NCBI GenBank assembly: GCA_963840935.1
Contig: CAWJAS010000001.1
Location: forward strand, 256,875 to 320,874
DNA length: 64,000 nt
Origin: Candidatus Magasanikiibacteriota bacterium
Lineage (GTDB): Bacteria > Patescibacteriota > Patescibacteriia > Magasanikbacterales > GWA2-37-8
Direction: 5' to 3'
This document shows positions 7,101 through 47,814 of the stretch, in pieces (positions within the stretch are counted from its first letter, which is position 1; the number at the start of each line of letters is the position of its first letter). The notes beneath the pieces are model-generated. The model was not told where the DNA came from. It saw only the letters and a program-made list of their open reading frames with translations, and did no database searches. The position numbers were made by a program, and so were the translations under genes.

Positions 7101-10100
7101 CCGGTCAAAGCTCGGCCGCTTTTAACATAGCCACAATTGCCAGTGGTAATTATTCAACCGCTTTTGGCAACACCACTGTGGCCAGTGGCATGACGGCGAC
7201 AGCTTTTGGTAATGGTACGACCGCCAGTGGTTATATTTCCACAGTATTTGGCAATAGCATGACAGTATCCGGTGATTATTCATTTGGCGTAAATGTTGGG
7301 GCTTCAGCTTCCCCTGTGCTCTCGCAAGCAAATACTATTGCTCTTATGGGTGGGAATGTCGGCATTGGTACAACTTCGCCACAATATCGATTGACAGTCG
7401 CTGGTGATTTGGCGGTTACAGGCACAATCAGAGTGGGGGATACTATGGCTTCCGGCACTTACGGCCAGATTTTGATGTCAACCGGCACAGGAGCTACCTG
7501 GATGAGCACCAGTTCACTTGGTTTGGGCGCTGGTACTGTTACAGGTTCCGGCACATCAACCGAAATAGCTTTTTGGTCCGGCACAAATTCACTTTCATCC
7601 TCAAGTTCACTTTATTGGAATAACACAACCGGCAAGTTAGGTATAAATAATTCAAATCCTGAATTCGCTTTAACTATTGGAAACGACGGCGGTATTATCG
7701 CAACAGGAACCTATGGTAGTGGAACTATTCTTACCACAGCAGGCGCCGGCACTCGAATGATTTGGTATCCGTATGGCGCGGCTTTTAGAGCTGGCATAAT
7801 CGACGGTACTCAGTGGAACGAATTTAATATCGGACATGGTTCCGTCGCTTTTGGCGCTAACACTATTGCGAGCGGAGCCGGCTCAATGGCTGTTGGTGCA
7901 GATACAGTAGCTTCAAATGCCTCGTCTTTTGCGTCGGGTTATGGAGCTGTTGCTTCAGGTTACGTTGGTTCTTCTATCGGTTTATATACAACTTCAAGCG
8001 GACATTATGGTTCATTTTCCATAGGCGAACGAACAGTAGCAAGTGGTAATCGCGCTTTTGCTGGTGGGTATTATTCCATAGCTTCAGGCACGGCCACACT
8101 TGCTTTTGGTCAAAACGCGAATGCATTAGGTAACAATTCAGTTGCGCTTGGTCAAAATGTTACCACCACATTGTCTTCAAGTAATAATTTTGCTCTTGGC
8201 AATAATATAATAGTTAGCGGTAATTATTCATTTGGTGTGAATGTTTCGTCAACTGTCGCGACTCTCGCGCAAGCCAACACTATTGCTCTAATGGGTGGTA
8301 ATGTCGGCATCGGCACAACGAGTCCGCCGTTAAAATTAACAATAGACGCGACTGTCGGTAGTGGCGGTTCTGAAGGAATTGGAATTTTTGGCGGTAATAG
8401 CACTACTGTTGCTCTTGGAAATTATAATAGCGGGGGCACATATACCGGAGTTTTGGCATTGTATCGCTCAGATTACTGGGGGCCAACCGCGATGTTTTCT
8501 GCCGGAGGTTCCGCTTCGCTTTATGGTTTTCATATTGGTACTTCCACTATTCCATCTACTATTTCACGTTTTACTGTTGGTTCAGATTTGGAATTTGCAA
8601 TAAGCAGTGACGGGGATATTACAAGAATAAATGACGTGCCCATGTCTTGGCCGTCGTCTCAAGGGGGAGTTGGCACGATTTTACAAAATGACGGTTCGGG
8701 TAATTTGTCTTGGGAGGCGACAAGTTCACTCGGGTTAATTGATGGCGAGGGTTCCGCCGGTTTTGTTACACTTTGGAATAGCAGTACCACTTTGTCTTAT
8801 GATGGTGATGGTATGTATTGGGACGGAATGGATAATCGATTGGGTATTGGGACAACGACTCCCTTGGGGAGACTGCATATGCGTACGAATATAAGTGGAG
8901 ATGGAATTTTTTTAAGTAATGATGTAGGTAAAGTGGCTTCAAAATTGTTTCTTATTTTAGATTCCGACAGCTATCAGTCAGGTAAACTATCTCTATTACA
9001 AAATGACGTGGAAAAAGTGTCTTTAGTTGCAAAAGGCAATTCTTATTTAACCGGCGGTAATGTGGGTATTGGCACATCAACACCGGAAACAGTATTGTCT
9101 GTTGCTGTTCCGGGGAATAATGGCATTGTTTTGTATGGATCCACAAATGGCTATCAATTGGCAGCACTTGCCAGCGGAGCCGGGAATGAAACGGGTGGTC
9201 TTGTGCTTTTTACCAACAATATATCTCAACCGAGTGTTTCCATTACTGGTGGAGTTGGAGGCGCGATTACTTATTTCGGCACTTCAACCTATCGTTTTGG
9301 CATTGCCACAAGTAGTCCTTTATCAGGGTTCACTTTTGTGGTTGCCGGCACTTCATCACAGCGTTCTATTTTACCGGAAACTAATTTGACTTACACATTG
9401 GGTGATTCTTCCAAGCGTTGGAATGAGTTGTGGACCGGCACGGCAAATATTGGTACAAGCACATGGTCGCTTACCACAACCGGCGCGGACCGATTTGGAA
9501 TTTTTAGCGGTCCGAGCGGAACGGCTACGGAAACAATATCGATTTTGCAGGATTTGGGTAATGTTGGTATCAACAACATATCACCATCAAAAACTTTAGA
9601 TGTTAACGGCAGTATTAATATTCCATCAACCGACACTACCACAGATTCAGGAATAATATATATGAATAGTAGCCGTTTTATTCATTCAGTGGGCGGAACA
9701 ACGAATTTTTATGCAGGCTTAGGATCCGCAAATACAAATGCCATTTCAGATTACAATACCGGTATTGGTGGCAATGCATTGATGAATATCACATCTGGCG
9801 ATGGCGCGAATGTTGCAGTTGGTTATAACGCTGGCAGAAGCATTACCACTGGAGCATATAATGTCGGTATTGGTATAAATAATTTTTATGAAAACGGAGG
9901 CGGTATTATTGGAAACGTAGCGATTGGTCGACACACCATGTATTCCACACAAAGTAATTCCAGTACCGCCGTTGGCTACGCTGCGATGAGAAATAACACG
10001 ACCGGTGAAGGTAATGTTGCCCTAGGATATTATGGACTTTATGCCAACTCTACAGGTAATTACAATACAGCCGTTGGTTTCGAAGCTTTGGCTACAACCA

Positions 10101-12919
10101 CAAATTCAAATAATACAGCTTTGGGTTATCAAGCATTATATGGGAGTAGAAGCGGTGCGCGCAATGTTGGTGTTGGTGTCCAATCGTTATATTCTTTGAC
10201 ATCGGGCAGTGACAACACTGCTCTTGGGTATAACGCTTTATATGGAATTACAAGTGGCTCATACAATGTTGGAGTCGGACCTTATTCTCTTTCAAGTATT
10301 TCCGGTACAACTATTACCAATAATACGGCAATAGGACAGCATGTTATGCGCGATGCGGTTGGCACAACCATGTATTATAATGTGGCAATTGGCTATGAAG
10401 CATTAAGATATTTATCAGTTTCCACGGCAACAGATAATGTGGCTATCGGCAGAGGCTCGATGAGTAATGCCTCCGGCACCCCAACAATAAATTACAATAT
10501 TGCTATCGGTCGAGAATCATTATTGAATACGGAAACTAGCGATAGTGTTGCTATTGGTGCATATGCTTTGCGTTATAATACTACAGGTGATGGCAATGTC
10601 GCGATTGGTTATGAAGCTTTGGAATTGAACGACACAGGCTCATATAATACAGCACTTGGTTATCGCGCTTTGGCTACTAATGATATCGCCATTGGTGGTA
10701 GTAATGTGGCTGTGGGTTATTCTGCGCTTGAAGACAGCTCAAACGGAGTGAACAATACTGCCTTGGGGTCAAGTGCGTTGTCAAATTTAACTTCGGGCAG
10801 TTACAATGTAGCCATTGGTAGCCAGTCTGGAAATGATGTGATATTTAGCACCGAGAATGGCAATACATTGATTGGCTACGCGACAGATATTCTTAATGGC
10901 GTCGAATATTCGACAGCTTTAGGCTATAGTGCAGTTGCAAGTACAAGTAATTCAATTTATTTGGGTCAATTAGGTAATGGTAATGGCAGGGTATTTTTTC
11001 CGGGAATATATGGCAGTGTGCCTGCAGCGACAAATTATGTTTGTATAAATCCAACAACCCGAGAAGTTGCCTATCAATCAACTGCCTGTGGTAGCTCCGA
11101 TGATAATTTAAAAATAAATGAAGAGAGTATCGCAGACGAGATTGATGTTTTAAATGCAGTCAAACAATTACGTGGCGTATTTTTTAATTGGGATTTATCT
11201 AATCCGGAAATGATGGGTGCGCCGTCAGATCGGCAGATTGGCGTAATAGCGCAAGAAGTTTTACCAATTTTACCAGAAGTAGTTGAATATAGCGAAGATT
11301 GGGGCTACTATTCGGTTGACTATCCCAAACTCACTGCTTTCCTCATCGAAGTCGCCAAAGCCCAGCAGAATATCCTCGACCCCATCACCGAGTCCATATT
11401 CATTAACACCACCACTCTAAACATGGCCTTTGGCTCATCTTCCACCCCATACAACCTGACCACCTATGGCAATCTGTCCTTCATATTACCTTCAGACTCC
11501 ACCTCAACTCACAAAATATCTTTTTCCAACACCGTTGATTTTGAATCTTCCGTCTCATCCACCCCCGACTCCCGCGCTTTCATCTTTAACGCTCTTAACT
11601 TTGATACCACATCAACCGACAAATACATATTATCTCTCCGTTCCAACAACAATCCGGTCTTTAGCGTCTCATCAAACGGCGATGTTCATTCCTCCGGCAA
11701 CATGTATGCCGCTTCCGCCGTCCTCGGCACATCCACCAACCCGGGTGACCTGGCAGAAAAAGTAGATATAAACCCCACGGAAACCGTGGAAGCAGGGGAT
11801 GTGATGATGGTTGACCCGGCCTCACCCGACAGATACCAAAAATCAAATCAAGCATACGAACCGACTGTGGCCGGCGTTATCTCCACGAACCCAACCATCA
11901 TTGTCGGCAACGGCAAAACCGACCAAACCGCTCCTCTTGCCATGGTTGGAAGGGTACCGGTCAAATTCAGTGAAGAAAACGGCGCAATACAAAGAGGCGA
12001 CCTCCTTGTATCGGCGAGCACTCCTGGCTATGCCATGAAATATGACCCGATTCTCGACAACTCCAGAAAAGTGGTCGGCATTATCGGTATTGCTCTTGAT
12101 AATTCCATGGAATCAACCAATGGTAAGATAATGACCCTTATCAGAACCGGTTGGGTCTACAACAAAACCCAAGCTGTCTCCAATCTTGAACAACAAGTTT
12201 ACTATGTCGCTTCAAGTGCCGGTGTTGACCTATCGGTTGACCCTGAACTCATGAATATTGAAACTACGAGCGAAGGATCTATCACCTACAACAGTGATAG
12301 CAACCTTAGTCTCAACAATTTCTCCATCACCAATGTCAAATCAATAATATCAACCAACAACAAATGGACCATAGATGAATACGGCCTCTTAATCACCAAA
12401 GTCATCACCGCTGAAGGAACTGAAAAGAATATCTACGGCATGACTTCTGAATCGGCGGAGATTACGCTGTCCGGCTCCGCCGAACTCATAAACGGTGAAG
12501 CAATAATTAACTTTGCCACCGATACACAGTGGTTGATTGATGAGACGCAAGAAATAAAAGTTATCCCAGCCTTAACTTCCGGTGATTGCAATGGAATATT
12601 TGTCAGCGAAAAATCATCTGCCGGCTTCACAATAAAGGAATTAAATAGTGGAACAAGTGCATCAACATTTGATTGGCTTGTGATTGCAAAAAGAAAAATA
12701 AATATTCAGGATGAAATAATTTATGAACCCACACCAACTCCGCCTATTGATGATACACCAACTACAACACCTTTGGTTGATTCTCCCACCACCACACCTC
12801 CAATTGATACATCTATCTCAACTCCACCAACAAGTACTCCATCCATAGACCCACCGACAACCACGCCTTCTGTAGAAGCCTCGTCTTCGCCAGATGAAAC
12901 AGCTATGGATGAATCATAA
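4127..12919 (+). CDS. Giant secreted fibre/adhesin-like protein of 2930 aa
   Basis: Uninterrupted 8.8-kb ORF. It contains a signal peptide, a Cys-rich cap, the RGVLLPRLTTTQRNA...EYY module, Hep_Hag/YadA-head-like repeats, large internal repeats carrying GAGTRMIWYPRKAAFRAG, an S74-type chaperone domain, a shared C-terminal module and a Pro/Thr-rich tail. Confidence 0.8.
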   Translation: MEKFEKQFKIRASIKSMMIFVFVFGIFVVFANSASATNWKPNPNQCPTTYNGQIGNPGEVMCGLNSGVAHWYDMTTLVGLVPAGNTTVNTGGGTYGGYVVDCDAFDASVPRCDNTGSFWCSPDATCNSAYRKTECIGTKWATDSGSSNCDVCQDNRWDCDTNNTCETADGASCTATLGGNNVPGTMNCVTGAGSCSDLGATLATCTCVPGVQYFQTGIQAQFATTSPLLWGTQYGTGDLINISSNDLSTTTFMVSNSGQVGVGLASAINTNVAFEVSSTNRGVLLPRLTTTQRNAILTPPESLLVYNIDNHQFEYYATSSWLAMGSGGGSFTETDPIWMTASGTLTTAHFATNTVSQWSNDAGYLTSYTTTSPAGINGQVQFNDNGAFGATNTLVWDNLLGSLSVGDNYTFLSGSRSFVQGLYSQATGTNSIAMGQYAQATNNFAVAIGGSSPVSSGNSSIAMGSGAHAYGNSSIALGNLASAENLSSVAIGYQTRSTGNYAVAIGGNTRATGLFSVAIGNNSTSSGNSSFVGGYNNDSSGNYSAVFGSDNINTGGDYAFISGDNNVNSGGLYSAIFGAYNTSTGQYSFIGAGLNSVASGINSVAFGRNLTVSGNYSFGVNAHGSNSYTLSQANTVALMGGNVGVGTTTPAYRLTVSGDFAVTGTIRVGNAMTPGTYGQLLMSTGTGAVWMSTSSLGLGGGGVTGSGTSTEVAFWSGTNSLSSSSSLYWNNTNGRLGINNATPEFALTIGNDGGIIATGTVGSGATLSTAGAGTRMIWYPRKAAFRAGYVNGTQWNDANIGEYSVAMGNGSRASGYGDIAIGTGVVASGGNSATAIGALNTASGDGAFALGRSMTVSGDYSFGVNVSTTGATLSQASTIALMGGNVGVGTTSPLFKLTIDGGIYSTGTFNAGETLSYSGAGTRMIWYPRKAAFRAGNVDSTQWNDANIGTYSVAFGEDTEASGDHGSTAFGTGSIASGDYGSAAFGSWTEASGQSSAAFNIATIASGNYSTAFGNTTVASGMTATAFGNGTTASGYISTVFGNSMTVSGDYSFGVNVGASASPVLSQANTIALMGGNVGIGTTSPQYRLTVAGDLAVTGTIRVGDTMASGTYGQILMSTGTGATWMSTSSLGLGAGTVTGSGTSTEIAFWSGTNSLSSSSSLYWNNTTGKLGINNSNPEFALTIGNDGGIIATGTYGSGTILTTAGAGTRMIWYPYGAAFRAGIIDGTQWNEFNIGHGSVAFGANTIASGAGSMAVGADTVASNASSFASGYGAVASGYVGSSIGLYTTSSGHYGSFSIGERTVASGNRAFAGGYYSIASGTATLAFGQNANALGNNSVALGQNVTTTLSSSNNFALGNNIIVSGNYSFGVNVSSTVATLAQANTIALMGGNVGIGTTSPPLKLTIDATVGSGGSEGIGIFGGNSTTVALGNYNSGGTYTGVLALYRSDYWGPTAMFSAGGSASLYGFHIGTSTIPSTISRFTVGSDLEFAISSDGDITRINDVPMSWPSSQGGVGTILQNDGSGNLSWEATSSLGLIDGEGSAGFVTLWNSSTTLSYDGDGMYWDGMDNRLGIGTTTPLGRLHMRTNISGDGIFLSNDVGKVASKLFLILDSDSYQSGKLSLLQNDVEKVSLVAKGNSYLTGGNVGIGTSTPETVLSVAVPGNNGIVLYGSTNGYQLAALASGAGNETGGLVLFTNNISQPSVSITGGVGGAITYFGTSTYRFGIATSSPLSGFTFVVAGTSSQRSILPETNLTYTLGDSSKRWNELWTGTANIGTSTWSLTTTGADRFGIFSGPSGTATETISILQDLGNVGINNISPSKTLDVNGSINIPSTDTTTDSGIIYMNSSRFIHSVGGTTNFYAGLGSANTNAISDYNTGIGGNALMNITSGDGANVAVGYNAGRSITTGAYNVGIGINNFYENGGGIIGNVAIGRHTMYSTQSNSSTAVGYAAMRNNTTGEGNVALGYYGLYANSTGNYNTAVGFEALATTTNSNNTALGYQALYGSRSGARNVGVGVQSLYSLTSGSDNTALGYNALYGITSGSYNVGVGPYSLSSISGTTITNNTAIGQHVMRDAVGTTMYYNVAIGYEALRYLSVSTATDNVAIGRGSMSNASGTPTINYNIAIGRESLLNTETSDSVAIGAYALRYNTTGDGNVAIGYEALELNDTGSYNTALGYRALATNDIAIGGSNVAVGYSALEDSSNGVNNTALGSSALSNLTSGSYNVAIGSQSGNDVIFSTENGNTLIGYATDILNGVEYSTALGYSAVASTSNSIYLGQLGNGNGRVFFPGIYGSVPAATNYVCINPTTREVAYQSTACGSSDDNLKINEESIADEIDVLNAVKQLRGVFFNWDLSNPEMMGAPSDRQIGVIAQEVLPILPEVVEYSEDWGYYSVDYPKLTAFLIEVAKAQQNILDPITESIFINTTTLNMAFGSSSTPYNLTTYGNLSFILPSDSTSTHKISFSNTVDFESSVSSTPDSRAFIFNALNFDTTSTDKYILSLRSNNNPVFSVSSNGDVHSSGNMYAASAVLGTSTNPGDLAEKVDINPTETVEAGDVMMVDPASPDRYQKSNQAYEPTVAGVISTNPTIIVGNGKTDQTAPLAMVGRVPVKFSEENGAIQRGDLLVSASTPGYAMKYDPILDNSRKVVGIIGIALDNSMESTNGKIMTLIRTGWVYNKTQAVSNLEQQVYYVASSAGVDLSVDPELMNIETTSEGSITYNSDSNLSLNNFSITNVKSIISTNNKWTIDEYGLLITKVITAEGTEKNIYGMTSESAEITLSGSAELINGEAIINFATDTQWLIDETQEIKVIPALTSGDCNGIFVSEKSSAGFTIKELNSGTSASTFDWLVIAKRKINIQDEIIYEPTPTPPIDDTPTTTPLVDSPTTTPPIDTSISTPPTSTPSIDPPTTTPSVEASSSPDETAMDES
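5400..5975 (+). other. Hep_Hag / YadA-head-like repeat region inside giant gene 1
   Basis: Repeated ..SIAMG..A.A.G..SVAIG..S.A.G.. units (e.g. NSSIALGNLASAENLSSVAIGYQTRSTGNYAVAIGGNTRATGLFSVAIG). Confidence 0.55.
5965..6555 (+). repeat. Copy 1 of a ~590-bp internal segmental repeat of giant gene 1
   Basis: The peptide YSFGVN...ALMGGNVGVGTT...GDFAVTGTIRVG...GAGTRMIWYPRKAAFRAG recurs at 7272-7860 with high identity. A shorter version lies at about 6700-6990. Confidence 0.6.
7272..7860 (+). repeat. Copy 2 of the ~590-bp internal segmental repeat of giant gene 1
   Basis: See copy 1. The peptide here is YSFGVNVGASASPVLSQANTIALMGGNVGIGTTSPQYRLTVAGDLAVTGTIRVG...GAGTRMIWYPYGAAFRAG. Confidence 0.6.
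11093..11380 (+). other. S74-type intramolecular-chaperone autoproteolysis domain, internal to giant gene 1
   Basis: The peptide SSDDNLKINEESIADEIDVLNAVKQLRGVFFNWDL...RQIGVIAQEVLPILPEVV...YYSVDYPKLTAFLIEVAKAQQ matches the SD(K/N)RLK...GLIAQEV..V.PE.V...Y..L..L.EA.K signature of the tail-spike/endosialidase C-terminal chaperone domain (Peptidase_S74). Confidence 0.6.
11546..12475 (+). repeat. About 930-bp block nearly identical to 25875-26795 in giant gene 2
   Basis: Direct nucleotide comparison shows only scattered mismatches across this block, whereas the flanking regions of the two genes are divergent. Confidence 0.75.
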
Positions 12920-13121: not shown

Positions 13122-13637
13122 ATGTCGTTCAAGTCGATTGTTTTCTGTGTGGTGTTCACGCTCGCCATTCTTGGATGCCAGTCGAGCGCCAACTTTGAGG
13201 CGGGAGACGGAGATGATGGTTTCGAGTCGTACGTCTTCAACGCCCTGTACTTCGATATCGAGAATTCGCTGGTTTGGGAACTGGTTCCGTCGCACGAAAG
13301 CAGTTACAGCACTGCCATTTGGGCGGAAGCAGAGAAACACTGCGAGGATCTTCGGGTCGTAGGGGAGGAGGGCATTTACGAAGATTGGCGCCTTCCCACC
13401 ATCGATGAACTGCGCACACTCGTGGTCGGTTGCGACGAACCTTCGTGTCTGATCGAGGCTGGTACCGGTCCGAACGGCTGCTATTGGCCGGATGCTTTTT
13501 CCGGCGTTTGTGCCCGTTATTGGTCGTTGAGTCGGTGCGGTGAAGATAGCCGGTCGGCAGTCACATTTTCTTTTGCCAGAACGGATTGTTGGCCAGAAGA
13601 TCAGCCGGCAATCGTCCGCTGCGTCCGCGACCTCTAA
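13122..13637 (+). CDS. Short lipoprotein (171 aa) with a DUF1566/Lcl-C-terminal-like (C-type-lectin-like) domain
   Basis: Signal peptide with a lipobox (LAILGCQS). Motifs WRLPTIDELRTL, GCYWP and YWS are present, and the protein ends RCVRDL. The gene is GC-rich relative to its flanks. Confidence 0.75.
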   Translation: MSFKSIVFCVVFTLAILGCQSSANFEAGDGDDGFESYVFNALYFDIENSLVWELVPSHESSYSTAIWAEAEKHCEDLRVVGEEGIYEDWRLPTIDELRTLVVGCDEPSCLIEAGTGPNGCYWPDAFSGVCARYWSLSRCGEDSRSAVTFSFARTDCWPEDQPAIVRCVRDL

Positions 13638-13681
13638 CCATCCCGCCTCACACCCCGCTCTTTCCGCTCTTTCAACTCCCG

Positions 13682-13711
13682 CCCGCCGATATTCCATCGG
13701 CGGGTTTTTTT
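13682..13711 (+). terminator. Rho-independent terminator (cccgccgat-attcc-atcggcggg + T7)
   Basis: Perfect 9-bp stem followed by a T-run. The identical element recurs at 15405-15428. Confidence 0.7.
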
Positions 13712-13929
13712 ATCGTTAACTATTGACTTAATTCGCTAAAAATGGTATTTTAATATATTAAAAAATTCGTATTTTTATTATTCTAAGCGAAGTAAAAAAT
13801 ATAATTTTTTTTCTGCGCCTAGAATGATAATGATAGCTCGTTGAAAATATTAAAAAAACCGACACAATACTGTGCGTCCCCAAGAGGCGTTCGTGGGGGA
13901 TAAAGCATTCCCGAAAAAAGGAGTAGTTC

Positions 13930-15354
13930 ATGAAAAAAATAATGATAGTTCCGGTGATTCTTTTTGCAACTATTTTTTTTACCGCATGCGGTAAAAGCGC
14001 CCCGGTTCGCATCACTGATACCGATACCGAAGACGATGATTCAATCATCATTTCCGGCGCAATGCAGAAGGGTCCTTTTCTTACGGGAAGCACGCTCGCC
14101 ATTTCAATGCTTGATTCTGACGGAGAAGCAATCGGGCTTGATTATCAAACCGTTTCCGAGGATGATTTCGGCGCTTTTAGCACGACTGTTCAATCTGACG
14201 GCCCAAGTGAGTTTGCCTGTAGCGGAGTATACTTCAATGAAGTGGCCGACCGCTTGTCAGATTCGCATTCGCCTATAACCTTGCGAGCAGTTTACGACAT
14301 ATCGGATGAAAGCCAACACGAAGTCATTCTGAATGTGTTTACCCATATGAGCTCGGGCCTTGTTCTAAAAAGAATGGCTGAAGGCGAAACAATTGCGAAC
14401 GCAATAGCATACGCCGAGAACAAGCTTTTTGAAGAGATAGGTATCGTCCATCCGCTTGGTTCCTTGCAGGGCAATGGCACAAGCATGGATTTGGCCGGGC
14501 TGAATTCACCGGACAATCAATACATTGTTGCTTTGTCTTGTGTTGTCGCGAAGACCGCAGAACTCATGGCAGGTGATTCGTCCGAAGTGGATGAGCATCT
14601 CCGAGAGATGATTAATGATATTCGTTCCCAATTGGAAAACGATGAGATTATCTCTTCGGAGTACAAAGAATATCTGCGCGAGGCTGAGTCCGCTCTTAAT
14701 CCGATTGATGGATGCGTCGATAATTTGGCCGACTATATATATTACCAAGCGGGTGAGGTTGTGGAACTTCCCGACCCCGACCAATGTCTTGATAATGATC
14801 ACGACGGCACGGTTAACGCCGAAGATACAGATATTGACGGCGATGGAATTGTCAACGACGATGACGAAGCCCCATACAACATCAATATCGGCGGTGGCAT
14901 GTATTTTGATTACGCCACTAACCTGGCGTGGGAAAATATGCCAAAGAATTACAAAATTCTTTGGTCAGTAGCCAAGAATTATTGTTTGAACCTTGTCGTC
15001 TACGGTTATGATGACTGGCGCATGCCCGCTATTTCTGAGCTTCGAACTCTCGTCAGAGACTGTTCCAACACAGAAACAGGCGGTGAGTGCGCGGTCACCG
15101 ATAGTTGTTCGACCGTTAGTTGTTTTGATGAGATTGACTGCTTCGAGCCGTGTCCACAGGGTTCAGGCCCGGCGGAGCCGAACAACTGCTACTGGCTATC
15201 TGACCTTGGCGGTGAATGTAGCGCCGATATTCAATATTGGTCATATTCAGTCGCCGATGATTATAATGCTTGGATGATTGATTTTGATTACGCTTCAATC
15301 CATCTTGGTGATTACACCTATAACGGGGCTATCCGTTGCGTCCGCGACCTCTAA
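13930..15354 (+). CDS. Long lipoprotein (474 aa): paralogous N-domain, TSP3-like Ca-binding repeats and a DUF1566-like C-terminal domain
   Basis: Lipobox FFTACGKS. The N-domain is paralogous to that of the 28377 gene. DxDxDG repeats are present (DNDHDGTVNAEDTDIDGDGIVNDDDE). The C-terminus carries WRMPAISELRTL ... IRCVRDL. Confidence 0.75.
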   Translation: MKKIMIVPVILFATIFFTACGKSAPVRITDTDTEDDDSIIISGAMQKGPFLTGSTLAISMLDSDGEAIGLDYQTVSEDDFGAFSTTVQSDGPSEFACSGVYFNEVADRLSDSHSPITLRAVYDISDESQHEVILNVFTHMSSGLVLKRMAEGETIANAIAYAENKLFEEIGIVHPLGSLQGNGTSMDLAGLNSPDNQYIVALSCVVAKTAELMAGDSSEVDEHLREMINDIRSQLENDEIISSEYKEYLREAESALNPIDGCVDNLADYIYYQAGEVVELPDPDQCLDNDHDGTVNAEDTDIDGDGIVNDDDEAPYNINIGGGMYFDYATNLAWENMPKNYKILWSVAKNYCLNLVVYGYDDWRMPAISELRTLVRDCSNTETGGECAVTDSCSTVSCFDEIDCFEPCPQGSGPAEPNNCYWLSDLGGECSADIQYWSYSVADDYNAWMIDFDYASIHLGDYTYNGAIRCVRDL

Positions 15355-15404
15355 CCAATCCCGCCCCACCCCCGCTCTTTCCGCTCTTTCAACTCCCGCC
15401 CGCC

Positions 15405-15428
15405 GATATTCCATCGGCGGGTTTTTTT
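15405..15428 (+). terminator. Rho-independent terminator, a duplicate of the 13682 element
   Basis: The same hairpin and T-run. About 110 bp of the 3' end plus UTR is near-identical between the two genes. Confidence 0.7.
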
Positions 15429-15553
15429 ATCCCTAAAAAGCATCTTAATAAATTGTAATCAAATTGTGGATAACTTATAAATAATATCGAAAATAACACA
15501 AAAATGTGATATAATAATAATGTAAAAAACAAGCCGGCCAATAAAAAGGCAAC

Positions 15554-17434
15554 ATGTTTATGTTAAATTGGAAAAAGGCTAAATTCATTGCGCTAGCGAC
15601 CGTATTTTTTGCGTTGCTTTTTTTGGTATCTCCGGCAAAATCCGCTTTTAACCCTCAAATTAATTATCAAGGTAAATTAATGAATGCTGTTGGCCAGCCG
15701 GCTCCGAACGGCGATTATAATTTTAAATTTCAACTTTGTTCAGCCCCCGATAATTGCACCTCTCCGGTTTGGACTGAGACATATGAAAGTTCAAATAAAA
15801 TTACCGTCACTTCAAGTTTGTTCAGCGTGCTATTAGGTTCGCTTGAAGATTTTGACGGCGTTGATTTTAATCAAACTTTGTATTTGGAAGTTCAAGTTGG
15901 AGGAACGAGCACCCCGAGTTACGAGACATTATTACCCCGCAAAAAACTTGGCGCAGTCCCAGTTTCTTTTTACGCCTCCACTTCAACATACTCGAATAAC
16001 TCCGGCCAGCTTCAGGGTCAAACTTGGGCTTCGCCTGGCGCCATCGGAACAGACACCGCCACAACCGCGGTGTTCACAAATGCCACCACAACAAATATAT
16101 TGCGGGTAATCGGCAATTCATATTTCGGTACAGTGGCAAGCGGTACGTGGCAGGGGACGGTAGTAGCAAACACTTACGGTGGCACCGGACAAAATTCATC
16201 CGGCTGGACCGGGTTCGCCTATGTAACATCCGGTATCTGGAGTCCTACAACAAGCATTTCTTTATTTACTAACGACGCTGGATATTTAACCAGCTATACC
16301 GAAACTGACCCGGTTTGGACAACAGCAAGTGGTTCCCTAACTGTCGCTCATTTCGCGACTAATACAGTTTCACAATGGTATAACGACGCTGGCTATATCA
16401 CTTCATCCGCTACTACGTCGCCCGCTGGCAATGACGGCGAAATCCAATTTAATGATTCCGGCGCGTTCGGCGCGACCACAACTTTTGTTTGGGATAATTC
16501 TGCGGGGAGATTAGGTATAAACACAACCACGCCAGCCGGGAAAATTCATGTAGTAACCGGCGCGAGCGCTGAAATTACAATTGGCACCCCGTCAAATGTT
16601 CAGGTTACTCCTAATTACGCGTCAAAAAAATATTATACGGCGAACAGTTATTCACACAACATGCGAGTGTATGCTTTCAAAGACACATCTGCGGGCAGAG
16701 TTTATTCATCATCATATGATGACCTTGCGAGCGATTGGACAGACAATGGTTCAGCTGGTAAATACGACCTTTCCTGGACATGGGACGCTGTATCTGGGGC
16801 CAGTGGTTATCGAATTTTGAAATACGATACTTCGCATCCATATAATTATGATGTGTATAAAGATGTAGCCACGAATTCTTATACCGATGACAATGGTGAC
16901 GCATGGCTTTCTTCGCCGGTTATGACCCCGACTTCATTGTATGAATCCGGCAAGGCCTTAAGATTGGGTTATGACTCTGCAAATTATGTTGATTTTAATA
17001 TTAACAGCGACGCTTCTTTTGGCATGTTCAATAACGCGGGTACCGGCATATTGTATATGGATGAAGACGGAAAAATTGCCGTTGATAGTACTGATCCGTT
17101 GGCGCAATTTTATGTCGGCGGTACCGGGGACATAATTGCCGAGGGTATTTTTGACAATGAGGATAGCTTGGGTGTTTCCGGTGCTGGCACCAGAATGATG
17201 TGGTATCCGGAAAAAGCGGCATTCAGAGCGGGGCGCGTTACAGGAGATGATTGGGATGATGCAAATATTGGTGATTATTCAGCAGTTTTCGGAATGGAAA
17301 ACTTGGCATTAGGTGAAGCGTCTTTTATTGCCGGATCATCAAATGAAGATGCCGGTGCGGGTAATGCAGTATTTGGGACAATGAATACTGCTAATGGATA
17401 TTATTCAATCGTTGCTGGCTTGGAAATAGTATAA
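15554..17434 (+). CDS. N-terminal segment (626 aa) of giant fibre gene 2, ending at an in-frame TAA
   Basis: Signal peptide. The N-module is shared with the 1205 gene, and the DPVWTTASGSLTVAHFATNTVSQW... module is shared with gene 1. The reading frame continues in the same frame immediately after the TAA at 17432. Confidence 0.65.
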   Translation: MFMLNWKKAKFIALATVFFALLFLVSPAKSAFNPQINYQGKLMNAVGQPAPNGDYNFKFQLCSAPDNCTSPVWTETYESSNKITVTSSLFSVLLGSLEDFDGVDFNQTLYLEVQVGGTSTPSYETLLPRKKLGAVPVSFYASTSTYSNNSGQLQGQTWASPGAIGTDTATTAVFTNATTTNILRVIGNSYFGTVASGTWQGTVVANTYGGTGQNSSGWTGFAYVTSGIWSPTTSISLFTNDAGYLTSYTETDPVWTTASGSLTVAHFATNTVSQWYNDAGYITSSATTSPAGNDGEIQFNDSGAFGATTTFVWDNSAGRLGINTTTPAGKIHVVTGASAEITIGTPSNVQVTPNYASKKYYTANSYSHNMRVYAFKDTSAGRVYSSSYDDLASDWTDNGSAGKYDLSWTWDAVSGASGYRILKYDTSHPYNYDVYKDVATNSYTDDNGDAWLSSPVMTPTSLYESGKALRLGYDSANYVDFNINSDASFGMFNNAGTGILYMDEDGKIAVDSTDPLAQFYVGGTGDIIAEGIFDNEDSLGVSGAGTRMMWYPEKAAFRAGRVTGDDWDDANIGDYSAVFGMENLALGEASFIAGSSNEDAGAGNAVFGTMNTANGYYSIVAGLEIV

Positions 17435-18240
17435 ATATTCAGTTTTGGTTCTTATGCCGAATATAATGCGGTTTTTGGCACAAATAATCAATTGTATAAT
17501 ACTGCAAAGTATTCTTAGTTACCGGTGGTTTTAATAATGTCACTTCAACATATTCCAGCGCGTTTGGCCAATCTCATATTATTAAAGGAGATTATTCACA
17601 TCTTTTTGGTTATAGCATTGACAGCCAACAGCGAATTTATTCTTTTGGTGTTAATGTTAGTTCAACGGCAGTAACTATGAACACCCCCAATACCATCGCC
17701 CTTATGGGTGGGAATGTCGGTATTGGCACAACATCGCCGGCATCATTATTAACAATTGGTAGTGGTGGTCAGTTTCAAGTTAATTCGACCGGCAATTTAA
17801 CGAAAATTAACAATGTTCAATACTCATGGCCTTCCGCCAACGGAGCTTCCGGTACGCTATTTACCACCGATGCTTCGGGTAATTTATCTTGGGTTGCCAC
17901 AACTTCTCTTGGATTGGCAACCGGCAATGTCACCGGTTCGGGTTCGACCGGCATGGTTACTTTTTGGACCGACACCAATGTGATATCAGGTTCATCTTCA
18001 TTTATTTGGGATAATACCAATCGCTCTTTGTCGGCTGGCGGAGTCGGAAGCATGTTATTTGTCGGCACGAAAAACTCTTTTGTATTTTCGGATAACAGTA
18101 GTATACAAATTAACCCGGATTCTTTTATTGGCGGTGGTTATTCAAATGTAGTAGTTGCAACATCGTCTTTTGTTGGAGGCGGTTATTATAACGAAATTCG
18201 TGATGGGGGAAACCTTCATCATTTATTGGTGGGGGCATGA
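17432..18240 (+). pseudogene. Disrupted junction region of giant gene 2 with three lesions
   Basis: An in-frame TAA lies at 17432-17434, and the repeat-consistent translation continues after it (IFSFGSYAEYNAVFGTNNQLYNTAKYS). A TAG/frame change occurs near 17515-17521. A +/-1 shift occurs in a G5 run near 18200-18210 (GGYYNEIRDGG / KPSSFIGGGMSNVIAG). Confidence 0.6.
17677..18240 (+). CDS. Internal fragment (187 aa) of giant gene 2
   Basis: Repeat-type sequence (NTIALMGGNVGIGTTSP...) continuous in content with the upstream and downstream segments. Overlaps the next ORF by 4 nt in another frame. Confidence 0.5.
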   Translation: MNTPNTIALMGGNVGIGTTSPASLLTIGSGGQFQVNSTGNLTKINNVQYSWPSANGASGTLFTTDASGNLSWVATTSLGLATGNVTGSGSTGMVTFWTDTNVISGSSSFIWDNTNRSLSAGGVGSMLFVGTKNSFVFSDNSSIQINPDSFIGGGYSNVVVATSSFVGGGYYNEIRDGGNLHHLLVGA

Positions 18241-21200
18241 GCAATGTTATTGCCGGGCAACATTCAGGTGTGGTCGCAGGCACTTATAATATTGTTACTT
18301 CTTCGAATTCATTTATCGGAGGCGGTTCAAATAATCAAATAACAAATTCCGCATCGCGCTCGTTTATCGGTGGCGGTCAATATAATTTCGCGGATGGTTT
18401 AAATTCTTTTATTGGGGGCTACGCCAACACCACCACTGGTAATAATGCGACTGCCTTCGGGTATCAGATGCAAGTTGATGGTAATTACTCTTTTGGCATA
18501 AATGTTTCCTCGACTAATCCGGCCACAATTACAAATAATAATACTATAGCTTTAATGGGTGGGAATGTTGGAGTGGGCACCACAACGCCAGAAACAAAAT
18601 TAACCATTGATTCAACTGTAGGCGCTGGTTTATTTGGTGGAATATCTTTATCTGGCGGGGGTGCTCCAACTGCGATTTTAGGTCATGCCAATATAGTTAG
18701 TAATCATTCGGGTGTTTTAGCATTATATAACAATACCCCAGCCGAATTATTACCACCAGTATTTATTCCCGCATGGACTAAATCGGCAATATTACACGGC
18801 TTGAATATTGGTACGACATCATATTCGGGAACTGGGTTGTTAAATGTCGGTCTTACCCAACAATTCCGGGTTGATAACGATGGTGACATTGCAAGGATTA
18901 AAAATATTTCTTATGATTGGCCAGACTCTCAAGGTGCCGTTGGTACTATCTTACAAAATAACGGGGCAGGAGCATTATATTGGACTGCGACATCATCGCT
19001 CGGTTTTGTTGACACAGACACCACCACATCCCCGGCCGGTTTTGACGGGTATATTCAATTTAATGAAGACGGTGAATTCGCGGCGAGTCAGAATTTATAT
19101 TGGGCCACATCAACTGGACGATTGGGTGTTGGTGACGCATCGATAGCCGGAAGTCCGACCAATAAATTATCAATTGGCGCGACACCCAGCAGTGGTTCCG
19201 CTGACGGTATGTCTATATACGGTGATGACTTATTAACTGCCTTTGTCGGTAATTACAATTCCAGTGGTGTTTATACCGGTCGTATCGGACTTTATCGCGC
19301 CGAAGACGCTGATACTGAATTAAAAACATTCATCAGTGCCAGTGCTTCATATTTTGTCGGCGGTAATGTCGGAATCGGTGTTTCAACGACAATCCCGTCT
19401 TTGTTAACCGTTGGTTCAAATAGCGGTTTCCAAGTCAATTCTTCCGGCAATTTAACAAAAATTAACAATGTCACATATTCCTGGCCAGGATCACAAGGCG
19501 CGGCTAGCACAATTTTACAAAATGACGGTTCGGGCACATTAACTTGGGTCAATACCTCCACCCTCGGTTTCGCCACCTCTTCGCACACCCATGCCACGCT
19601 CTCACAAGGTACCGGTATCGCCGCGTTTTCATACAACGGTTCATCGGCCGCCACTGTCGGTCTGGCCACTTCGGGTGTTACTGCCGGCACTTATGGCACG
19701 GTTTCAGCAGTGCCTATCTTAGTAGTTGATACCTATGGTCGTATTACTTCGGCTTCCACATCATCAATTGCCATTTCTGCCAGTCAAATTACATCCGGGA
19801 TTCTTCCTATCGCTCGTGGTGGCACTAATTCTTCAACTATCGGCGCTGCCGGTTCGGTCCCATATTCCGATGCCACTTCATACCGTTTTACAGCCGTTGG
19901 CACCTCCGGTCAAATTCTACGCTCCAACGGGGCCGGAGCCCCAACTTGGGTTTCCACTTCAACTCTCGGCATTACTGTCACTGAAACCGATCCTGTTTTT
20001 GACGCCTTGCCGGCGGCCAAAGGTGATATATTTACCGCCACGGCCAATGATACACCATCAATTTTGTCTGTCGGTACGAATGGAAAAATATTAACAGCTT
20101 CTTCTTCCGCCACTAACGGCATAGATTGGATGACGACATCTTCTCTCATCGGCACTCTTGGCACCATGGCTTATCAAAATGCTAATAACGTAAATATTTC
20201 GGGGGGAACGATTACCAGTATAGGGGATGTTACAATTAACGAAGGTCAGCTTTATGTGCATGACAATTTATATATTACAGACGGTGATAGCGATACGGTG
20301 TCCGGCATATATTTGGGTGCCACCGAAGTCGGTCAATATTTTATAACCTCAGCCGGTACTGCCGGTCAACTTTGGTCGTCTGACGGAGATGGGCGCGGAA
20401 CATGGGTGGCGACATCTTCACTTGGTATTGCTAGCGCCGGTGGTTGGACTGATGATGGCATGGTAGTGCGATTGACCACCATTATAGACAATGTCGGCAT
20501 CGGCACAACCACACCGGCGGCTAAACTGCATGTAAATATCACAACTGGCGACGGTATCATATTAGGCTCAGGAAGCAGTGGAAGCGCAGTAGCTAAATTG
20601 TTTGCCAATGGTGACTATGGCGATGTTGGTAATATATCGTTGCATTATGGCTCAAGCCAAAAAGCTTTATTATCGGCCGACGGTGTTTCCTATCTTAATG
20701 GCGGGAATGTAGGCATTGGTACCACTTCACCGGCGGCTAAACTGCATGTAAATATCACAACTGGCGACGGTATCATATTAGGCTCAGGAAGCAGTGGAAG
20801 CGCAGTAGCTAAATTGTTTGCCAATGGTGACTATGGCGATGTTGGTAATATATCGTTGCATTATGGCTCAAGCCAAAAAGCTTTATTATCGGCCGACGGT
20901 GTTTCCTATCTTAATGGCGGGAATGTAGGCATTGGTACCACTTCACCGGCGGCTAAACTGCATGTAAATATCACAACTGGCGACGGTATCATATTAGGCT
21001 CAGGAAGCAGTGGAAGCGCAGTAGCTAAATTGTTTGCCAATGGTGACTATGGCGATGTTGGTAATATATCGTTGCATTATGGCTCAAGCCAAAAAGCTTT
21101 ATTATCGGCCGACGGTGTTTCCTATCTTAATGGCGGGAATGTCGGCATTGGTACCACTTCACCGTCATACAGCTTATCTGTTGCTGGTCATATGGCAGTT

Positions 21201-24200
21201 ACTGGAACGTTCAGAGTGGGGAATTCTCAAGATGCCGGTGCTTCAGGATATATTTTGCGATCAAATGGTTCATCGGTCGCCCCGACTTGGGTGGCCACAT
21301 CTTCGCTTGGCTTAATGAGTACTGCTCTTGCTTCCGCATACATTTGGGTAGGCAATGCTTCCGGCGTAGCAACTGCTGTTTCTATGAGCAGTGACGCTAC
21401 GATATCCAACACAGGTGCTCTAACTATTTCAGCCAATGCGGTTGGGTCAAATGAAATAATTAACAATTCAATTGCGCCGGTTGACATGGCTTCAAGTAGC
21501 GCCCCATCAGCAGTTGGAAATGTTTTAACCTATAACGGAAGTAACTTTAAATGGATTGCCACATCTTCTCTGGGAATCGCCTCTGCCGGTGGTTGGACTG
21601 ATGATGGTACGGTGGTCAGATTAACCGCAATTACAGATAGTGTCGGCATCGGCACAACCACTCCGCCATTTAAATTGGCGGTTCAAGCAGGATATAATGA
21701 TGGAATTACTTTATATAGCCCAACAGCGGTTGGGACTATTGGGATGGTTAGTATTCTTGGTGGTGGCGGTGGTCCGGCCGGAGTTTTGTTAGCAATGGAT
21801 ACTGGAGTAATAAAAACTCGTATTAGCGCCGACGCCAGCACGGATTCATATTTTGATGCTGGTGATGTCGGTATAGGTACAACTACCCCATCAAACAAAT
21901 TGCAGGTAAATGTCACTAGCAATAATGATGGCATATTATTGAGTGGCAATAGCACACTTGCTGCAAAATTATATTATGATGGTTCGAGTGGCCATATCGG
22001 ATATATGTCTTTATATGGCGGTGGAGCGGAAACCGTTAAATTATCAGCATCTGGCTATTCATATATAAATGGCGGTAATGTCGGCATCGGCACAACCACT
22101 CCGCCATTTAAATTGGCGGTTCAAGCAGGATATAATGATGGAATTACTTTATATAGCCCAACAGCGGTTGGGACTATTGGGATGGTTAGTATTCTTGGTG
22201 GTGGCGGTGGTCCGGCCGGAGTTTTGTTAGCAATGGATACTGGAGTAACAAAAATTAGAATAAGCGCTGACGCTAGTACTGATTCATATTTTAACGCTGG
22301 TGATGTCGGCATCGGCACAACAACCCCCGCCGGAAAACTGCATGTATTATCATCCGCAAGCGACGGCATATTATTAAGCGGAACAGATGATAACAAAATT
22401 GCGGCTAAACTTCATCACACTTACATGAGCGGAGCAACCGCGGGTTTGTTGTCCATGTACGATAATACAGTCCAAAAAATATATTTGAATGCCGGCGGTA
22501 TTTCGTATTTGAACGGAGGCAATGTGGGTATTGGCACTACTTCTCCTGCCTATAAATTAACTGTTGCCGGCGATTTACACGTTACAGGTACTTTAAGAGT
22601 AGGAAATAATTTTGATGCAGGTATTACCGGATACCTGTTGATGTCAAATGGCTCTTCTCTTGCACCTAGCTGGACATCAACAGCAACTTTATTTTCCTCT
22701 GCCGGTGGTTGGACTGACGATGGTACTATAGTAAGGTTGACTACATTGGGTGATAAAGTTGGAATTAATACATACAGCGCTTTTGCGCCCCTCCATGTTG
22801 GAGATACATCAAATGATGGCACTATTGTCGCAAAAGGATTACTAGGTTCTGGATACTCATTAAATTTAGATCAAGATCAACCATATTTTGTATGGAGTTC
22901 CAAGCGAGCAGCGTTAAGAGCTGGTATATCAGGGTCATCTTTAGCTTGGGATGATGCCTATGTTGGAAATTATTCTGTTGCCATGGGTTATTATTCGGCG
23001 GCAACAGGCACAGCATCAGTTGCAATCGGTGGAGCTAATATTGCCACAGCAGATTATGCAACAGCGCTTGGTTACAATATGACTGTTTCCGGCGCGCGTT
23101 CATTCGGTGTAAATGTTTCAACTACAGCCGCCACCCTCTCGCAGGCTGATACTATCGCCTTGATGGGTGGCAATGTTGGGGTTGGTAAAGTTAACCCAGA
23201 AAGAAAGCTCGATGTTAGCGGAGTGGCGCGAATTCAAAATTTTGCTTCTTTGAGCAATGTACAATATGATGCAGTCAATATTAATTATACGATGTTGGGC
23301 AACAACATCTACATGAATGAATATTCCGGTGTTCCTTATTTTGCTTATTTAAATACTGACAGCGGTGGAGCGACAGGTTATTCCGGTATGTTATTGGCTT
23401 CCGCTGGTTTTAATTTTTACGCCGATGTTTCTTCAACTGTTAAAGATGGTGTTTTGAGTGACCCAAATAAATTAATGGATTTATTATATGATGGGCAACT
23501 TATTTCATATGGCACTTATAGCGTAGGCGATTCTTTAACTGCGTCAGGCGCCGGCACCCGTATGATTTGGTTCCCAAAAAAATCCGCTTTTAGAGCGGGC
23601 ACAGCAGAAGGCACAGAATATAACGACGCGAATATTGGCAATTATTCATTTGCAGGAGGTTCTGGTAATCTTGCAAGCGGTGAATCTGCTACTGCCTTTG
23701 GAAGCAGAAATACTGCAAGTGGACAGTGGTCTTTTATCGCTGGCTCGCAAAATACCGCGTCTAATACGGCGTCCATCGCTTTGGGTCGCTCAAATAATGC
23801 CACTGGAATTTATTCTTTTACCGCTGGTTATGGTAACACTGCAAGCGGAATTTATTCCGTGGCTATTGGTAGAAGTTCAGTTGCGAGCGAAGAACACACT
23901 ACGGCTTTGGGCTATAATGCAACAGCAAGCGGTGAATATGCGACTGCTTTGGGTTATCAGAGTACCGCAAGTTTTTATGGTGCTTCTGCGTTTGGTTTTA
24001 GAAGTGTTGCTAGTAGCTTTTACTCTCTGGCTTTAGGTAACACTGTAACGTCAAGCGGATCAAACGCCGTTGCTATGGGTAGCTTTATTACTGTTTCTGG
24101 TTCTAGCTCGCTTGGTATTAATGTGTCTTCTACTGTGCCCGCAACACTTTCTCAAAATCACACTATCGCCTTAATGGGTGGGAATGTCGGTGTTGGCACA

Positions 24201-28153: not shown

Positions 28154-28228
28154 TCGACTCACCCCCTCATATTCATGAGGGAAAAATACCTGCCTCAAAC
28201 CCTGCTCTTTAATCAAACCGTTCATTTA

Positions 28229-28267
28229 CCCGCCATGTCGCATGACCTCTGGCGGGTCTTTTTTTTA
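28229..28267 (+). terminator. Rho-independent terminator (cccgcca...tggcggg + T-run), duplicated at 29925
   Basis: Hairpin followed by TCTTTTTTTT. About 85 bp of 3' UTR is identical between the 27509 and 28377 genes. Confidence 0.65.
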
Positions 28268-29849: not shown

Positions 29850-29924
29850 TACGCTCCACCGTCCTTCATCACGAAGGTAAATACCTGCCTCAAACCCTGC
29901 TCTTTAATCAAACCGTTCATTTAC

Positions 29925-29961
29925 CCGCCATGTCGCATGACCTCTGGCGGGTCTTTTTTTT
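29925..29961 (+). terminator. Rho-independent terminator, a duplicate of the 28229 element
   Basis: Identical hairpin and T-run. Confidence 0.65.
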
Positions 29962-47726: not shown

Positions 47727-47814
47727 TTTTTTGGGTATGAATGGTAGACAATAAAAAAACGGACCGAGATAGAATCTCGGTCCGAGTGTTTATATGAATG
47801 AGCTTGCAAGGCTA

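Follow-up and report, generated by a model that had tools for sequence, protein, structure and literature searches.

Clustered frame breaks in a giant fibre gene of a Patescibacterium are probably consensus errors

Introduction

The DNA analysed here (the window, 64,000 nucleotides in length, with positions counted from its first letter and all features below lying on the plus strand) carries a giant fibre-type gene, gene 2, whose reading frame is broken repeatedly over a short distance. A preliminary description of the locus counted three interruptions within 800 bp and left three explanations for them, namely a decaying pseudogene, a phase-variable switch or errors of assembly. We ask whether the pieces belong to one gene, what the interruptions consist of, and whether they reflect the biology of the bacterium or the quality of its sequence.

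Results

Gene 2 is composed of ORF A, segment C and ORF D, which are pieces of one fibre/adhesin gene. ORF A (15554-17434, frame 2, 626 aa) is closed by a TAA at 17432-17434. As the preliminary description had noticed, frame 2 nevertheless reads on past this stop as IFSFGSYAEYNAVFGTNNQLYNTAKYS until a TAG at 17516-17518. The fibre-type coding then moves to frame 1 (about 17511-18240), in keeping with the shift first placed near 17515-17521, and next to frame 0 (open from 18204, with an ATG at 18237, to 27299). In the codon-usage frame plot, the frame order 2 to 1 to 0 is followed across gene 2 without a gap. After joining, the product is about 3,913 aa long, which bears out the protein of some 3900 aa proposed at the outset. 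More specifically, the spliced sequence aligns colinearly with unbroken modules of gene 1 (an intact paralog at 4127-12919; 2,930 aa; ORF list), of the ortholog in the sister genome (L001) and of two further relatives (L004 and L005), and because of this colinearity the continuity of gene 2 goes beyond chance.

The content of the pieces was assigned from the ORF list, domain scans and comparison with gene 1. Piece A (15554-17418, frame 2) has a signal/anchor peptide at its N-terminus as well as the AFNPQINYQGKL domain, after which the first head-repeat module (GAGTRMMWYPEKAAFRAG...) begins; the piece shares 63% amino acid identity with the L001 ortholog. Next comes an out-of-frame patch of 8 codons (17419-17443) which contains the TAA and whose true frame, according to nucleotide alignment with L001 and three-frame translation, is frame 1 (LGNSINIQ). 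Piece B (17444-17510) is in frame 2 again (...FGSYAEYNAVFGTNNQLYNTAK). Piece C (17511-18204, frame 1) supplies the remainder of the head-repeat module and a module of ~190 aa (about 17,600-18,150; GNVGIGTTSP...YSWP...LSW) that is absent from L001. Piece D (18204-27299, frame 0; annotated ORF from the ATG at 18237, 3,020 aa) contains YadA-head-like repeats that score 62.6 bits, above their Pfam cutoff. It also has tandem repeats of 72 aa and a C-terminal part with a paralogous counterpart in gene 1. The domain scan detected no Peptidase_S74 domain in gene 2, unlike gene 1 and the L001 ortholog, and PDB sequence searches with piece A and with the C-terminus of piece D gave no matches. The predicted architecture would comprise an N-terminal signal/anchor domain, repeated beta-helical YadA-head-like modules, GNVGIGTTSP connector modules and the gene 1-like C-terminal region.

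Comparison with L001 changes the picture of the interruptions themselves. The breaks and their clustering are confirmed, but instead of one substitution and two shifts we find four deletion events (-1, -2, -1 and -1) within about 800 bp. At the first lesion, nucleotide alignment places a gap of 1 nt at 17418/17419 (GCTGG-CTTGG) and one of 2 nt at about 17443/17444 (TTCAGT--TTTGG). Between these gaps frame 1 of the window reads LGNSINIQ against LGNTIGSS in L001; with the gaps, 11 of 20 nt agree, compared with 3 of 21 when the patch is forced in frame (our own count). Because the gapped alignment is the better one, the TAA at 17432-17434 arises from a -1/-2 indel pair, and the earlier argument that an in-frame stop made by substitution favours a real mutation does not hold. 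The second lesion is a 1-nt gap at 17510/17511 (AAAGT-ATTC; allowed shift window 17500-17518) outside any homopolymer, after which frame 2 meets the TAG; its repaired reading is TAK-S-FLVTGG, against SAQSVLVAGG in L001. The third (-1, frame 1 to frame 0) lies inside GATGGGGGAAACC, in a tract of G5 (18205-18209) and A3 (18210-18212). With one TGA (18201-18203) closing frame 0 and another (18238-18240) ending frame 1, this second frame change must fall within 18204-18215, in agreement with the position of about 18200-18210 given before.

All four indels lie in 17419-18212 and none in the remaining ~10.9 kb of the gene, piece D (9.06 kb) and piece A (1.86 kb) being free of lesions. Read in their true frames, the patches that are out of frame still encode sequence resembling that of the ortholog. 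Long homopolymers are absent from three of the four deletion sites, and the many A7-9 and T7-9 runs of the window coincide with none of the lesions found. By eye, no convincing shared sequence or methylation motif was seen at nine lesion sites.

Two other genes of the window serve as controls. The uvrB gene (45651-47726) shows three +1 frame changes (0 to 1 to 2 to 0) at about 46956, 47075 and 47230, i.e., within 290 nt. Once repaired, it matches positions 1-652 of the 653 positions of the UvrB equivalog model NF003673 with 1000 bits (cutoff 743); unrepaired, its two ORFs cover just 1-428 and 518-657. The uvrA (919 aa) and uvrC genes are unbroken and have the expected domains. A CHASE2 adenylate/guanylate cyclase gene (54628-56386) carries one frame change (1 to 2) at about 54,840-54,853; this frameshift falls inside a conserved domain, and the joined N-terminus matches positions 4-90 of the CHASE2 profile without a break. 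In total, the 64 kb contain at least 8 indels, every one in still-conserved sequence, which amounts to roughly one per 8 kb in a clustered distribution. The direction is uniform in each cluster, with deletions throughout gene 2 and insertions throughout uvrB. We also noted a further candidate frameshift between the ORFs at 38549-39121 and 39066-39464, neither of which has a Pfam match.

Given that uvrB and the cyclase are broken likewise in the same window, the indels of gene 2 are most likely sequence errors, and with the rest of these genes pristine, the clusters of indels implicate the consensus. We consider it probable that the interruptions of gene 2 are assembly/consensus errors and not biology, and of the three initial options assembly error is the one that best fits the data. 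The four deletions would be local consensus or polishing errors in an error-prone, probably long-read, metagenome assembly, where we infer both the artefact status and the platform. Similar frameshift errors are known from Nanopore-only MAGs, in which single-base indels split conserved genes into adjacent overlapping ORFs, at a rate of several genes per tens of kb (Sereika et al., 2022, PMC9262707; mmlong2/Microflora Danica MAGs, PMC12313526). Below a coverage of about 40x, assemblies of this kind are known to retain indels that break up gene calls (PMC9262707). The sister genome was assembled in just this way: the only close relative found is MAG MFD04716.bin.1.125, a Nanopore-only metaFlye assembly with one round of Medaka polishing. 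Its ortholog of gene 2 carries a frameshift of its own elsewhere in the gene, which cuts a conserved FRAGR...DWDD motif.

Several observations count against errors as the source. Compared with Nanopore-only MAGs, whose platform is given while that of the window is deduced, the lesions here are tightly clustered, run in the same direction and lie mostly off long homopolymers, unlike the classic homopolymer error signature; the shared direction within each cluster is unexplained by simple random error. In addition, the breaks of the window and of L001 are within about 200 nt of each other, a coincidence that we estimate at ~10% if errors are random. As for independent sequences of the locus, protein searches found no same-species assembly closer than the 58%-identical L001 ortholog, the exact DNA pattern beside the second lesion had no matches in JGI metagenomes, and a protein-pattern scan of JGI metagenomes gave identities of at most 47%.

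The alternative that survives best, although we regard it as unlikely, is that the lesions are real and very recent, so that the fibre gene has only just been inactivated in the sequenced population, or in its dominant strain, and yields a 626-aa secreted N-terminal fragment or nothing. The cause could be the loss of a costly or host-specific adhesin, and the indels could have arisen together, as a cluster, in a single mutational event close to a module that varies between strains. Surface-fibre genes are often lost or varied. The sequence as given does carry the lesions, and these bracket the ~190-aa module missing in the sister genome, which marks the region as structurally variable; the absence of Peptidase_S74 from gene 2 and the nearby break in the L001 ortholog argue in the same direction. 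However, this reading also needs uvrB to have gained three frameshifts just as recently, and the cyclase one, although both genes are otherwise perfectly conserved. No plain nonsense substitution is found among the lesions of the window, whereas real pseudogenes gather those as well as indels, and most of gene 2 is untouched. Under uniform neutral decay at the local density, we estimate that ~55 more lesions would be expected elsewhere in the gene; instead of being spread along it, four of four are confined to one segment.

Nor does gene 2 look like a recent redundant copy of gene 1 under relaxed selection, as had been suggested. The two genes share ~53% identity over the C-terminal ~930 aa and ~35% over the other modules, and each has a separate syntenic ortholog in L001. 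Against these orthologs, pN is well below pS (0.24 vs 0.70 for piece A and 0.34 vs 0.72 for pieces C and D together), similar to intact gene 1; this comparison reveals no relaxed constraint, with dS saturated and very recent relaxation not visible to it.

It is very doubtful that the full-length fibre is toggled by -1 ribosomal frameshifting at G_GGA_AAC (18207-18213) or by slipped-strand variation of the G5 tract. The heptamer is a canonical X_XXY_YYZ slippery sequence in the incoming frame 1, and a -1 slip on it yields a well-formed ...DGGNPSSFIGGG repeat, the predicted trans-frame peptide being ...EIRDGGNPSSFIGGG. The 96 nt downstream also form a more stable fold than shuffled sequences (z = -3.1). 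Such recoding would explain only one of the four lesions, however, and the ribosome would already have halted at the TAA at 17432 and the TAG at 17516 before reaching the heptamer. The hairpin starts directly after the heptamer with a spacer of zero, while a slippery heptamer and its stimulatory structure are usually separated by 5-9 nt. In-frame heptamers arise by chance 1-2 times per kb in these genes, neighbouring G and A runs are typical spots for indels, and the site is absent from L001. Rfam gave no match at this site. Phase variation, which the preliminary description had proposed for the G tract, fares no better: phase-variable homopolymer tracts typically have 7 or more units. The G5 falls far below known contingency tracts, it is one of 22 runs of five or more G in the window (maximum G6), and the other three lesions of gene 2 are outside repeat tracts. 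The likeness to phase-variable loci and to dnaX-type -1 frameshifting is limited to a homopolymer tract and an X_XXY_YYZ heptamer at one frame change. Against it stand a tract of insufficient length, a stimulatory structure at the wrong distance, a lack of conservation and three upstream lesions that it leaves unexplained. We give equally little credence to a composite in which the indels are real, surround the ~190-aa module that varies between strains in a host-attachment fibre of 3,900 aa, and leave G_GGA_AAC/G5 as a true switch (ribosomal or slipped-strand) in an episymbiotic Patescibacterium.

The least credible alternative treats each piece as a gene of its own, for a secreted protein of 626 aa, a small product in the middle and a fibre of 3,020 aa. 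In its favour, gene callers do give separate ORFs, in L001 as well (612 aa and 3,189 aa), and the GGTGGGGG stretch before the ATG at 18237 looks like a ribosome-binding site. However, the coding signal spans every boundary with no intergenic gap, the window and L001 are not broken at the same points, and the boundaries cut a conserved head-repeat module that runs uninterrupted in relatives and in three copies in gene 1, so that the breaks do not correspond to real gene ends. Instead, a single giant ORF is found in most relatives: the N-terminal domain there forms part of ORFs of 2,000 to more than 4,000 aa, including in relatives assembled from short reads (L003, >2,601 aa; L004, >3,572; L012, 3,371; L031, >3,498; L032, >3,494).

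Three further candidates were rejected. Mis-assembly through near-identical repeats was dismissed on the grounds that segment C has no near-identical DNA copy elsewhere in the window, its best match there being 88% over 50 nt. The lesions are not recombination junctions of the extra module, since colinearity with L001 holds on either side of lesions 1, 2 and 3. Reassignment of TAA or TAG was ruled out because the frames truly shift and other genes of the window read open under the standard bacterial code (table 11).

Discussion

Once the probable consensus errors are set aside, gene 2 is, judging from its sequence, a single and probably intact gene of about 3,915 aa, whose product would be a fibre/adhesin on the cell surface of a member of the Patescibacteria (CPR). 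Long modular fibres with a conserved N-terminal domain and mosaic exchange of modules are also found among the Bdellovibrio mosaic adhesive trimer (MAT) proteins and among phage tail fibres and endosialidases with the Peptidase_S74 intramolecular chaperone. The MAT proteins are chimeric fibres, reportedly described by Caulton et al. in 2024. Modules are likewise exchanged in mosaic fashion between the gene 1/gene 2 paralogs and their orthologs, and gene 1 and the L001 ortholog share the S74 chaperone domain. The N-terminal domain of gene 2 matches NCBIfam Bdello_MAT_N (NF053851) only weakly (22.6 bits against a curated cutoff of 60, E = 7e-5), i.e., as a resemblance below the cutoff. Differences from these families further include the undetected S74 domain in gene 2, proteins that are here 3-4 times longer, and a Patescibacterium as host, the present fibres being known from sequence.

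A second likeness is to the trimeric autotransporter adhesins (YadA/Ata family), with YadA_head repeats above the Pfam cutoff in both piece D and gene 1 (114 bits in the latter). Whole-protein NCBIfam scores are, however, far under their cutoffs, and Pfam and NCBIfam scans identified head repeats only, with no YadA-type C-terminal anchor/translocator. The organism is probably monoderm, and the likeness to YadA is therefore limited to the head-repeat fold and does not extend to the secretion system.

For users of this genome, the result is above all a quality flag: in gene 2, uvrB, the CHASE2 cyclase and possibly 38549-39464, split ORFs are not to be taken for pseudogenes, gene fissions or recoding. 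An inferred loss of nucleotide excision repair, as well as gene counts from this genome, would mislead. In this Patescibacterium, the giant mosaic fibre gene pair adjoins Lcl_C/DUF1566 proteins. Regardless of the interruptions, the pair is of moderate interest as likely host-attachment machinery.

Reading frames and anatomy of gene 2

Gene 2, the giant fibre gene, lies downstream of its intact paralog, gene 1 (4127-12919; 2,930 aa, with YadA_head repeats and a Peptidase_S74 chaperone domain). Between them is a gene for an Lcl_C (DUF1566) protein (13930-15354), beside which a 118-nt repeat occurs at 13615-13732 and 15332-15449 (86% identical). Gene 2 appears as three ORFs: A (15554-17434, 626 aa, frame 2), a middle ORF (17677-18240, 187 aa, frame 1) and D (18237-27299, 3,020 aa, frame 0). 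Three-frame translation confirms the preliminary description in that fibre-like sequence in frame 2 continues beyond the TAA at 17432-17434, until a TAG at 17516-17518. Coding sequence then follows in frame 1, ending at a TGA at 18238-18240, and frame 0 is open from 18204. Since frame 0 is closed before this point by a TGA at 18201-18203, the last shift, previously placed in a G5 run near 18200-18210, is confined to 18204-18215, a G5A3 tract. Codon usage plotted frame by frame, with other genes as the training set, gives an unbroken coding signal that switches from frame 2 to 1 to 0 at the same points. Joined, the pieces yield 3,913 aa, matching the single protein of about 3900 aa proposed earlier.

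The closest relative is the Candidatus Magasanikbacteria MAG MFD04716.bin.1.125 (contig CAWDHY010000002.1; L001/L002). L001 is syntenic with the window: a gene-1-like ORF (2,514 aa), an ORF of 525 aa where the window has its Lcl_C gene, and a gene 2 ortholog called as an A-like ORF of 612 aa and a D-like ORF of 3,189 aa. Spliced gene 2 is colinear across all junctions with the intact modules of gene 1, L001 and a further relative, L004. From this colinearity, the pieces are one gene, with the breaks falling inside a conserved structural module. Gene 1 holds three copies of a module reading GAGTRMIWYP.KAAFRAG...NIG.YS...YSFGVNVS...NTIALMGGNVG[IV]GTTSP. More distant relatives, assembled for the most part from short reads, carry the N-terminal AFNPQINYQGKL domain as part of one giant ORF of 2,000 to >4,000 aa.

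Nucleotide identity between the window and L001 is 73-82% over most of the region and about 60% at the TAA patch. Three gaps were found in the window relative to L001: 1 nt at 17418|17419, 2 nt at about 17443|17444 and 1 nt at 17510|17511. Between the first two, frame 1 of the window encodes LGNSINIQ where L001 has LGNTIGSS. By our own count, a gapped alignment of the TAA patch matches 11 of 20 nt and a forced in-frame alignment 3 of 21. The TAA is therefore the by-product of a -1/-2 indel pair and not a nonsense substitution, and the argument that a substitution-type lesion favours a real mutation at this site falls. The shift noted near the TAG at 17515-17521 is present, and its cause is the 1-nt gap at 17510|17511; once repaired, this site reads ...TAK-S-FLVTGGFNNV..., compared with SAQSVLVAGGFNNV in L001. 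Repair of the G5A3 tract gives ...YYNEIRDGG(K/N)PSSFIGGG. The interruptions are thus present in the sequence within the 800 bp first described, but they comprise four events rather than three, all of them deletions.

Frameshifts elsewhere in the window

Broken genes are not limited to the fibre locus. uvrB (45651-47726) is split into ORFs at 45651-46967 (438 aa) and 47229-47726 (165 aa), and its 90 missing residues are encoded between them in two other frames (order 0, 1, 2, 0), with extra bases at ~46956, ~47075 and ~47230, that is, three single-base frame changes in ~290 nt. The repaired gene encodes a highly conserved, full-length UvrB and matches UvrB equivalog models in one stretch (1-652/653, 1000 bits, cutoff 743), compared with 1-428 and 518-657 only for the unrepaired ORFs. 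An antisense ORF over uvrB (47093-47809) is probably spurious. In a CHASE2-adenylate/guanylate cyclase gene (54628-56386), the frame changes from 1 to 2 at ~54,840-54,853. Its called ORF (54773-56386) begins at profile position 55, the first ~55 CHASE2 positions being encoded upstream in frame 1, and the joined N-terminus is continuous over positions 4-90. The overlapping ORFs 38549-39121 (frame 2) and 39066-39464 (frame 0), neither with a Pfam match, look like parts of a single nucleotidyltransferase-like protein (...LDKLRN|EDVYLAYW...) and may be another frameshift.

The ORFs of uvrA (919 aa) and uvrC (439 aa) show no break, and each has the domains expected of it. uvrC (51893-53212) stops just after the RNase H-like endonuclease domain, and no C-terminal helix-hairpin-helix region is recognisable downstream in any frame; the short version may be the natural form. 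The leuS ORF carries three in-frame copies of a palindromic hairpin element of ~84 nt (30725-30808, 31169-31252, 32048-32131; MFE -37 to -40 kcal/mol), so that the product gains peptides like VIARSEAPKQSNGIASSPATHVPRNDK (aa 236-264, 384-412 and 677-705). These elements are similar to the Rickettsia palindromic elements found inside protein-coding genes.

Origin of the interruptions

In total, the window contains at least eight frameshifting indels, tightly clustered in genes whose conservation is otherwise perfect, and none of the lesions found is a plain nonsense substitution. Such a pattern is typical of consensus error and not of pseudogene decay. Assembly error was one of three options offered earlier; we favour it, as uvrB and the CHASE2 cyclase gene are broken likewise and restored by repair, and consider it the probable origin of the gene 2 interruptions. 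The MFD04716.bin.1.125 assembly is Nanopore-only, built with metaFlye and polished once with Medaka (PMC12313526), and Nanopore-only assemblies below ~40x coverage retain indels that break up gene calls (PMC9262707). From its single 770,905-bp contig and the NCBI/ENA origin recorded for its protein P0001, we infer that the window's assembly is of a similar long-read type. The L001 ortholog also changes frame, at a site differing from those in the window: at L001 11760-11840, inside a conserved FRAGR|...DWDD motif, L001 has 2 nt more than the window, and this divides its gene into the 612-aa and 3,189-aa calls. Three of the four gene 2 deletions lie outside homopolymers, the exception being the last, and no link with any lesion was found for the 108 A/T runs of 7-9 nt in the window. 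Shift direction is uniform inside each cluster, and the gene 2 lesions flank a module of ~190 aa that is absent from L001. Speculatively, polishing might fail locally where strains differ structurally, which would fit the homopolymer, direction and module observations.

Sequence searches, including metagenomes, found no reads or second assembly of this species. That the gene 2 lesions are real, very recent mutations seems to us unlikely. A programmed frameshift at the G5A3 tract would draw on an in-frame G_GGA_AAC heptamer coinciding with the lesion and on the 96 nt downstream, whose predicted fold is more stable than that of shuffled sequence (z = -3.1). However, the hairpin begins without a spacer, these genes hold 1-2 such in-frame heptamers per kb, L001 does not share the site, Rfam yields no match, and ribosomes would terminate twice upstream.

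The proposal that gene 2 is a duplicate of gene 1 decaying under relaxed selection is rejected. The two share 53% identity over the C-terminal ~930 aa only and ~35% over other modules, and L001 holds a separate ortholog of each. Relative to L001, nonsynonymous differences are much rarer than synonymous ones: pN and pS are 0.24 and 0.70 for piece A, 0.34 and 0.72 for the frame-1 segment plus D, and 0.38 and 0.72 for intact gene 1, values that, with dS saturated, inform on long-term constraint only. The four lesions all fall inside 800 bp, with zero in the other ~10.9 kb, where we estimate that uniform neutral decay at the same density would leave ~55 more. A phase-variable switch is poorly supported, the G5 tract being too short for a contingency tract and one of 22 runs of at least five Gs in the window. 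Separate genes are contradicted by module continuity and by the differing break points in the window and L001.

Predicted product of gene 2

The window is part of a bacterial chromosome and carries leuS, comEC, nusA, yidC, groEL, uvrA/B/C and a thioredoxin gene, and all relatives of its fibre genes are from Patescibacteria (CPR) MAGs. Downstream of gene 2, the Lcl_C (DUF1566) genes 27509-28153 and 28377-29849 are followed by 83-nt copies (28184-28266 and 29879-29961; 100% identical), each terminating in a GC-rich hairpin and a terminator-like T8 run.

Gene 2 putatively encodes a giant modular surface fibre. It comprises an N-terminal signal/anchor that weakly resembles the N-domain of Bdellovibrio MAT fibres (22.6 bits, under the cutoff), YadA-head-like beta-helical repeats, connector modules and a C-terminal region paralogous to that of gene 1. 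At three tandem repeats of 216 nt (72 aa) inside gene 2 (20490-21164, 97-98% identical), length may vary or the assembly may be ambiguous. A Peptidase_S74 intramolecular-chaperone domain is present in gene 1 (aa 2324-2386) and in the D-like ORF of L001 (aa ~2517-2730); none is detectable in gene 2, with no remnant in any frame over 24600-27296. A 300-nt patch (11520-11819 in gene 1, 25849-26148 in gene 2) is 91% identical, far above the background similarity of the two, which points to gene conversion between these paralogs. These genes are module mosaics. The gene 2 product has no autotransporter anchor and so does not belong to the trimeric autotransporter adhesins; its predicted role would be host attachment.
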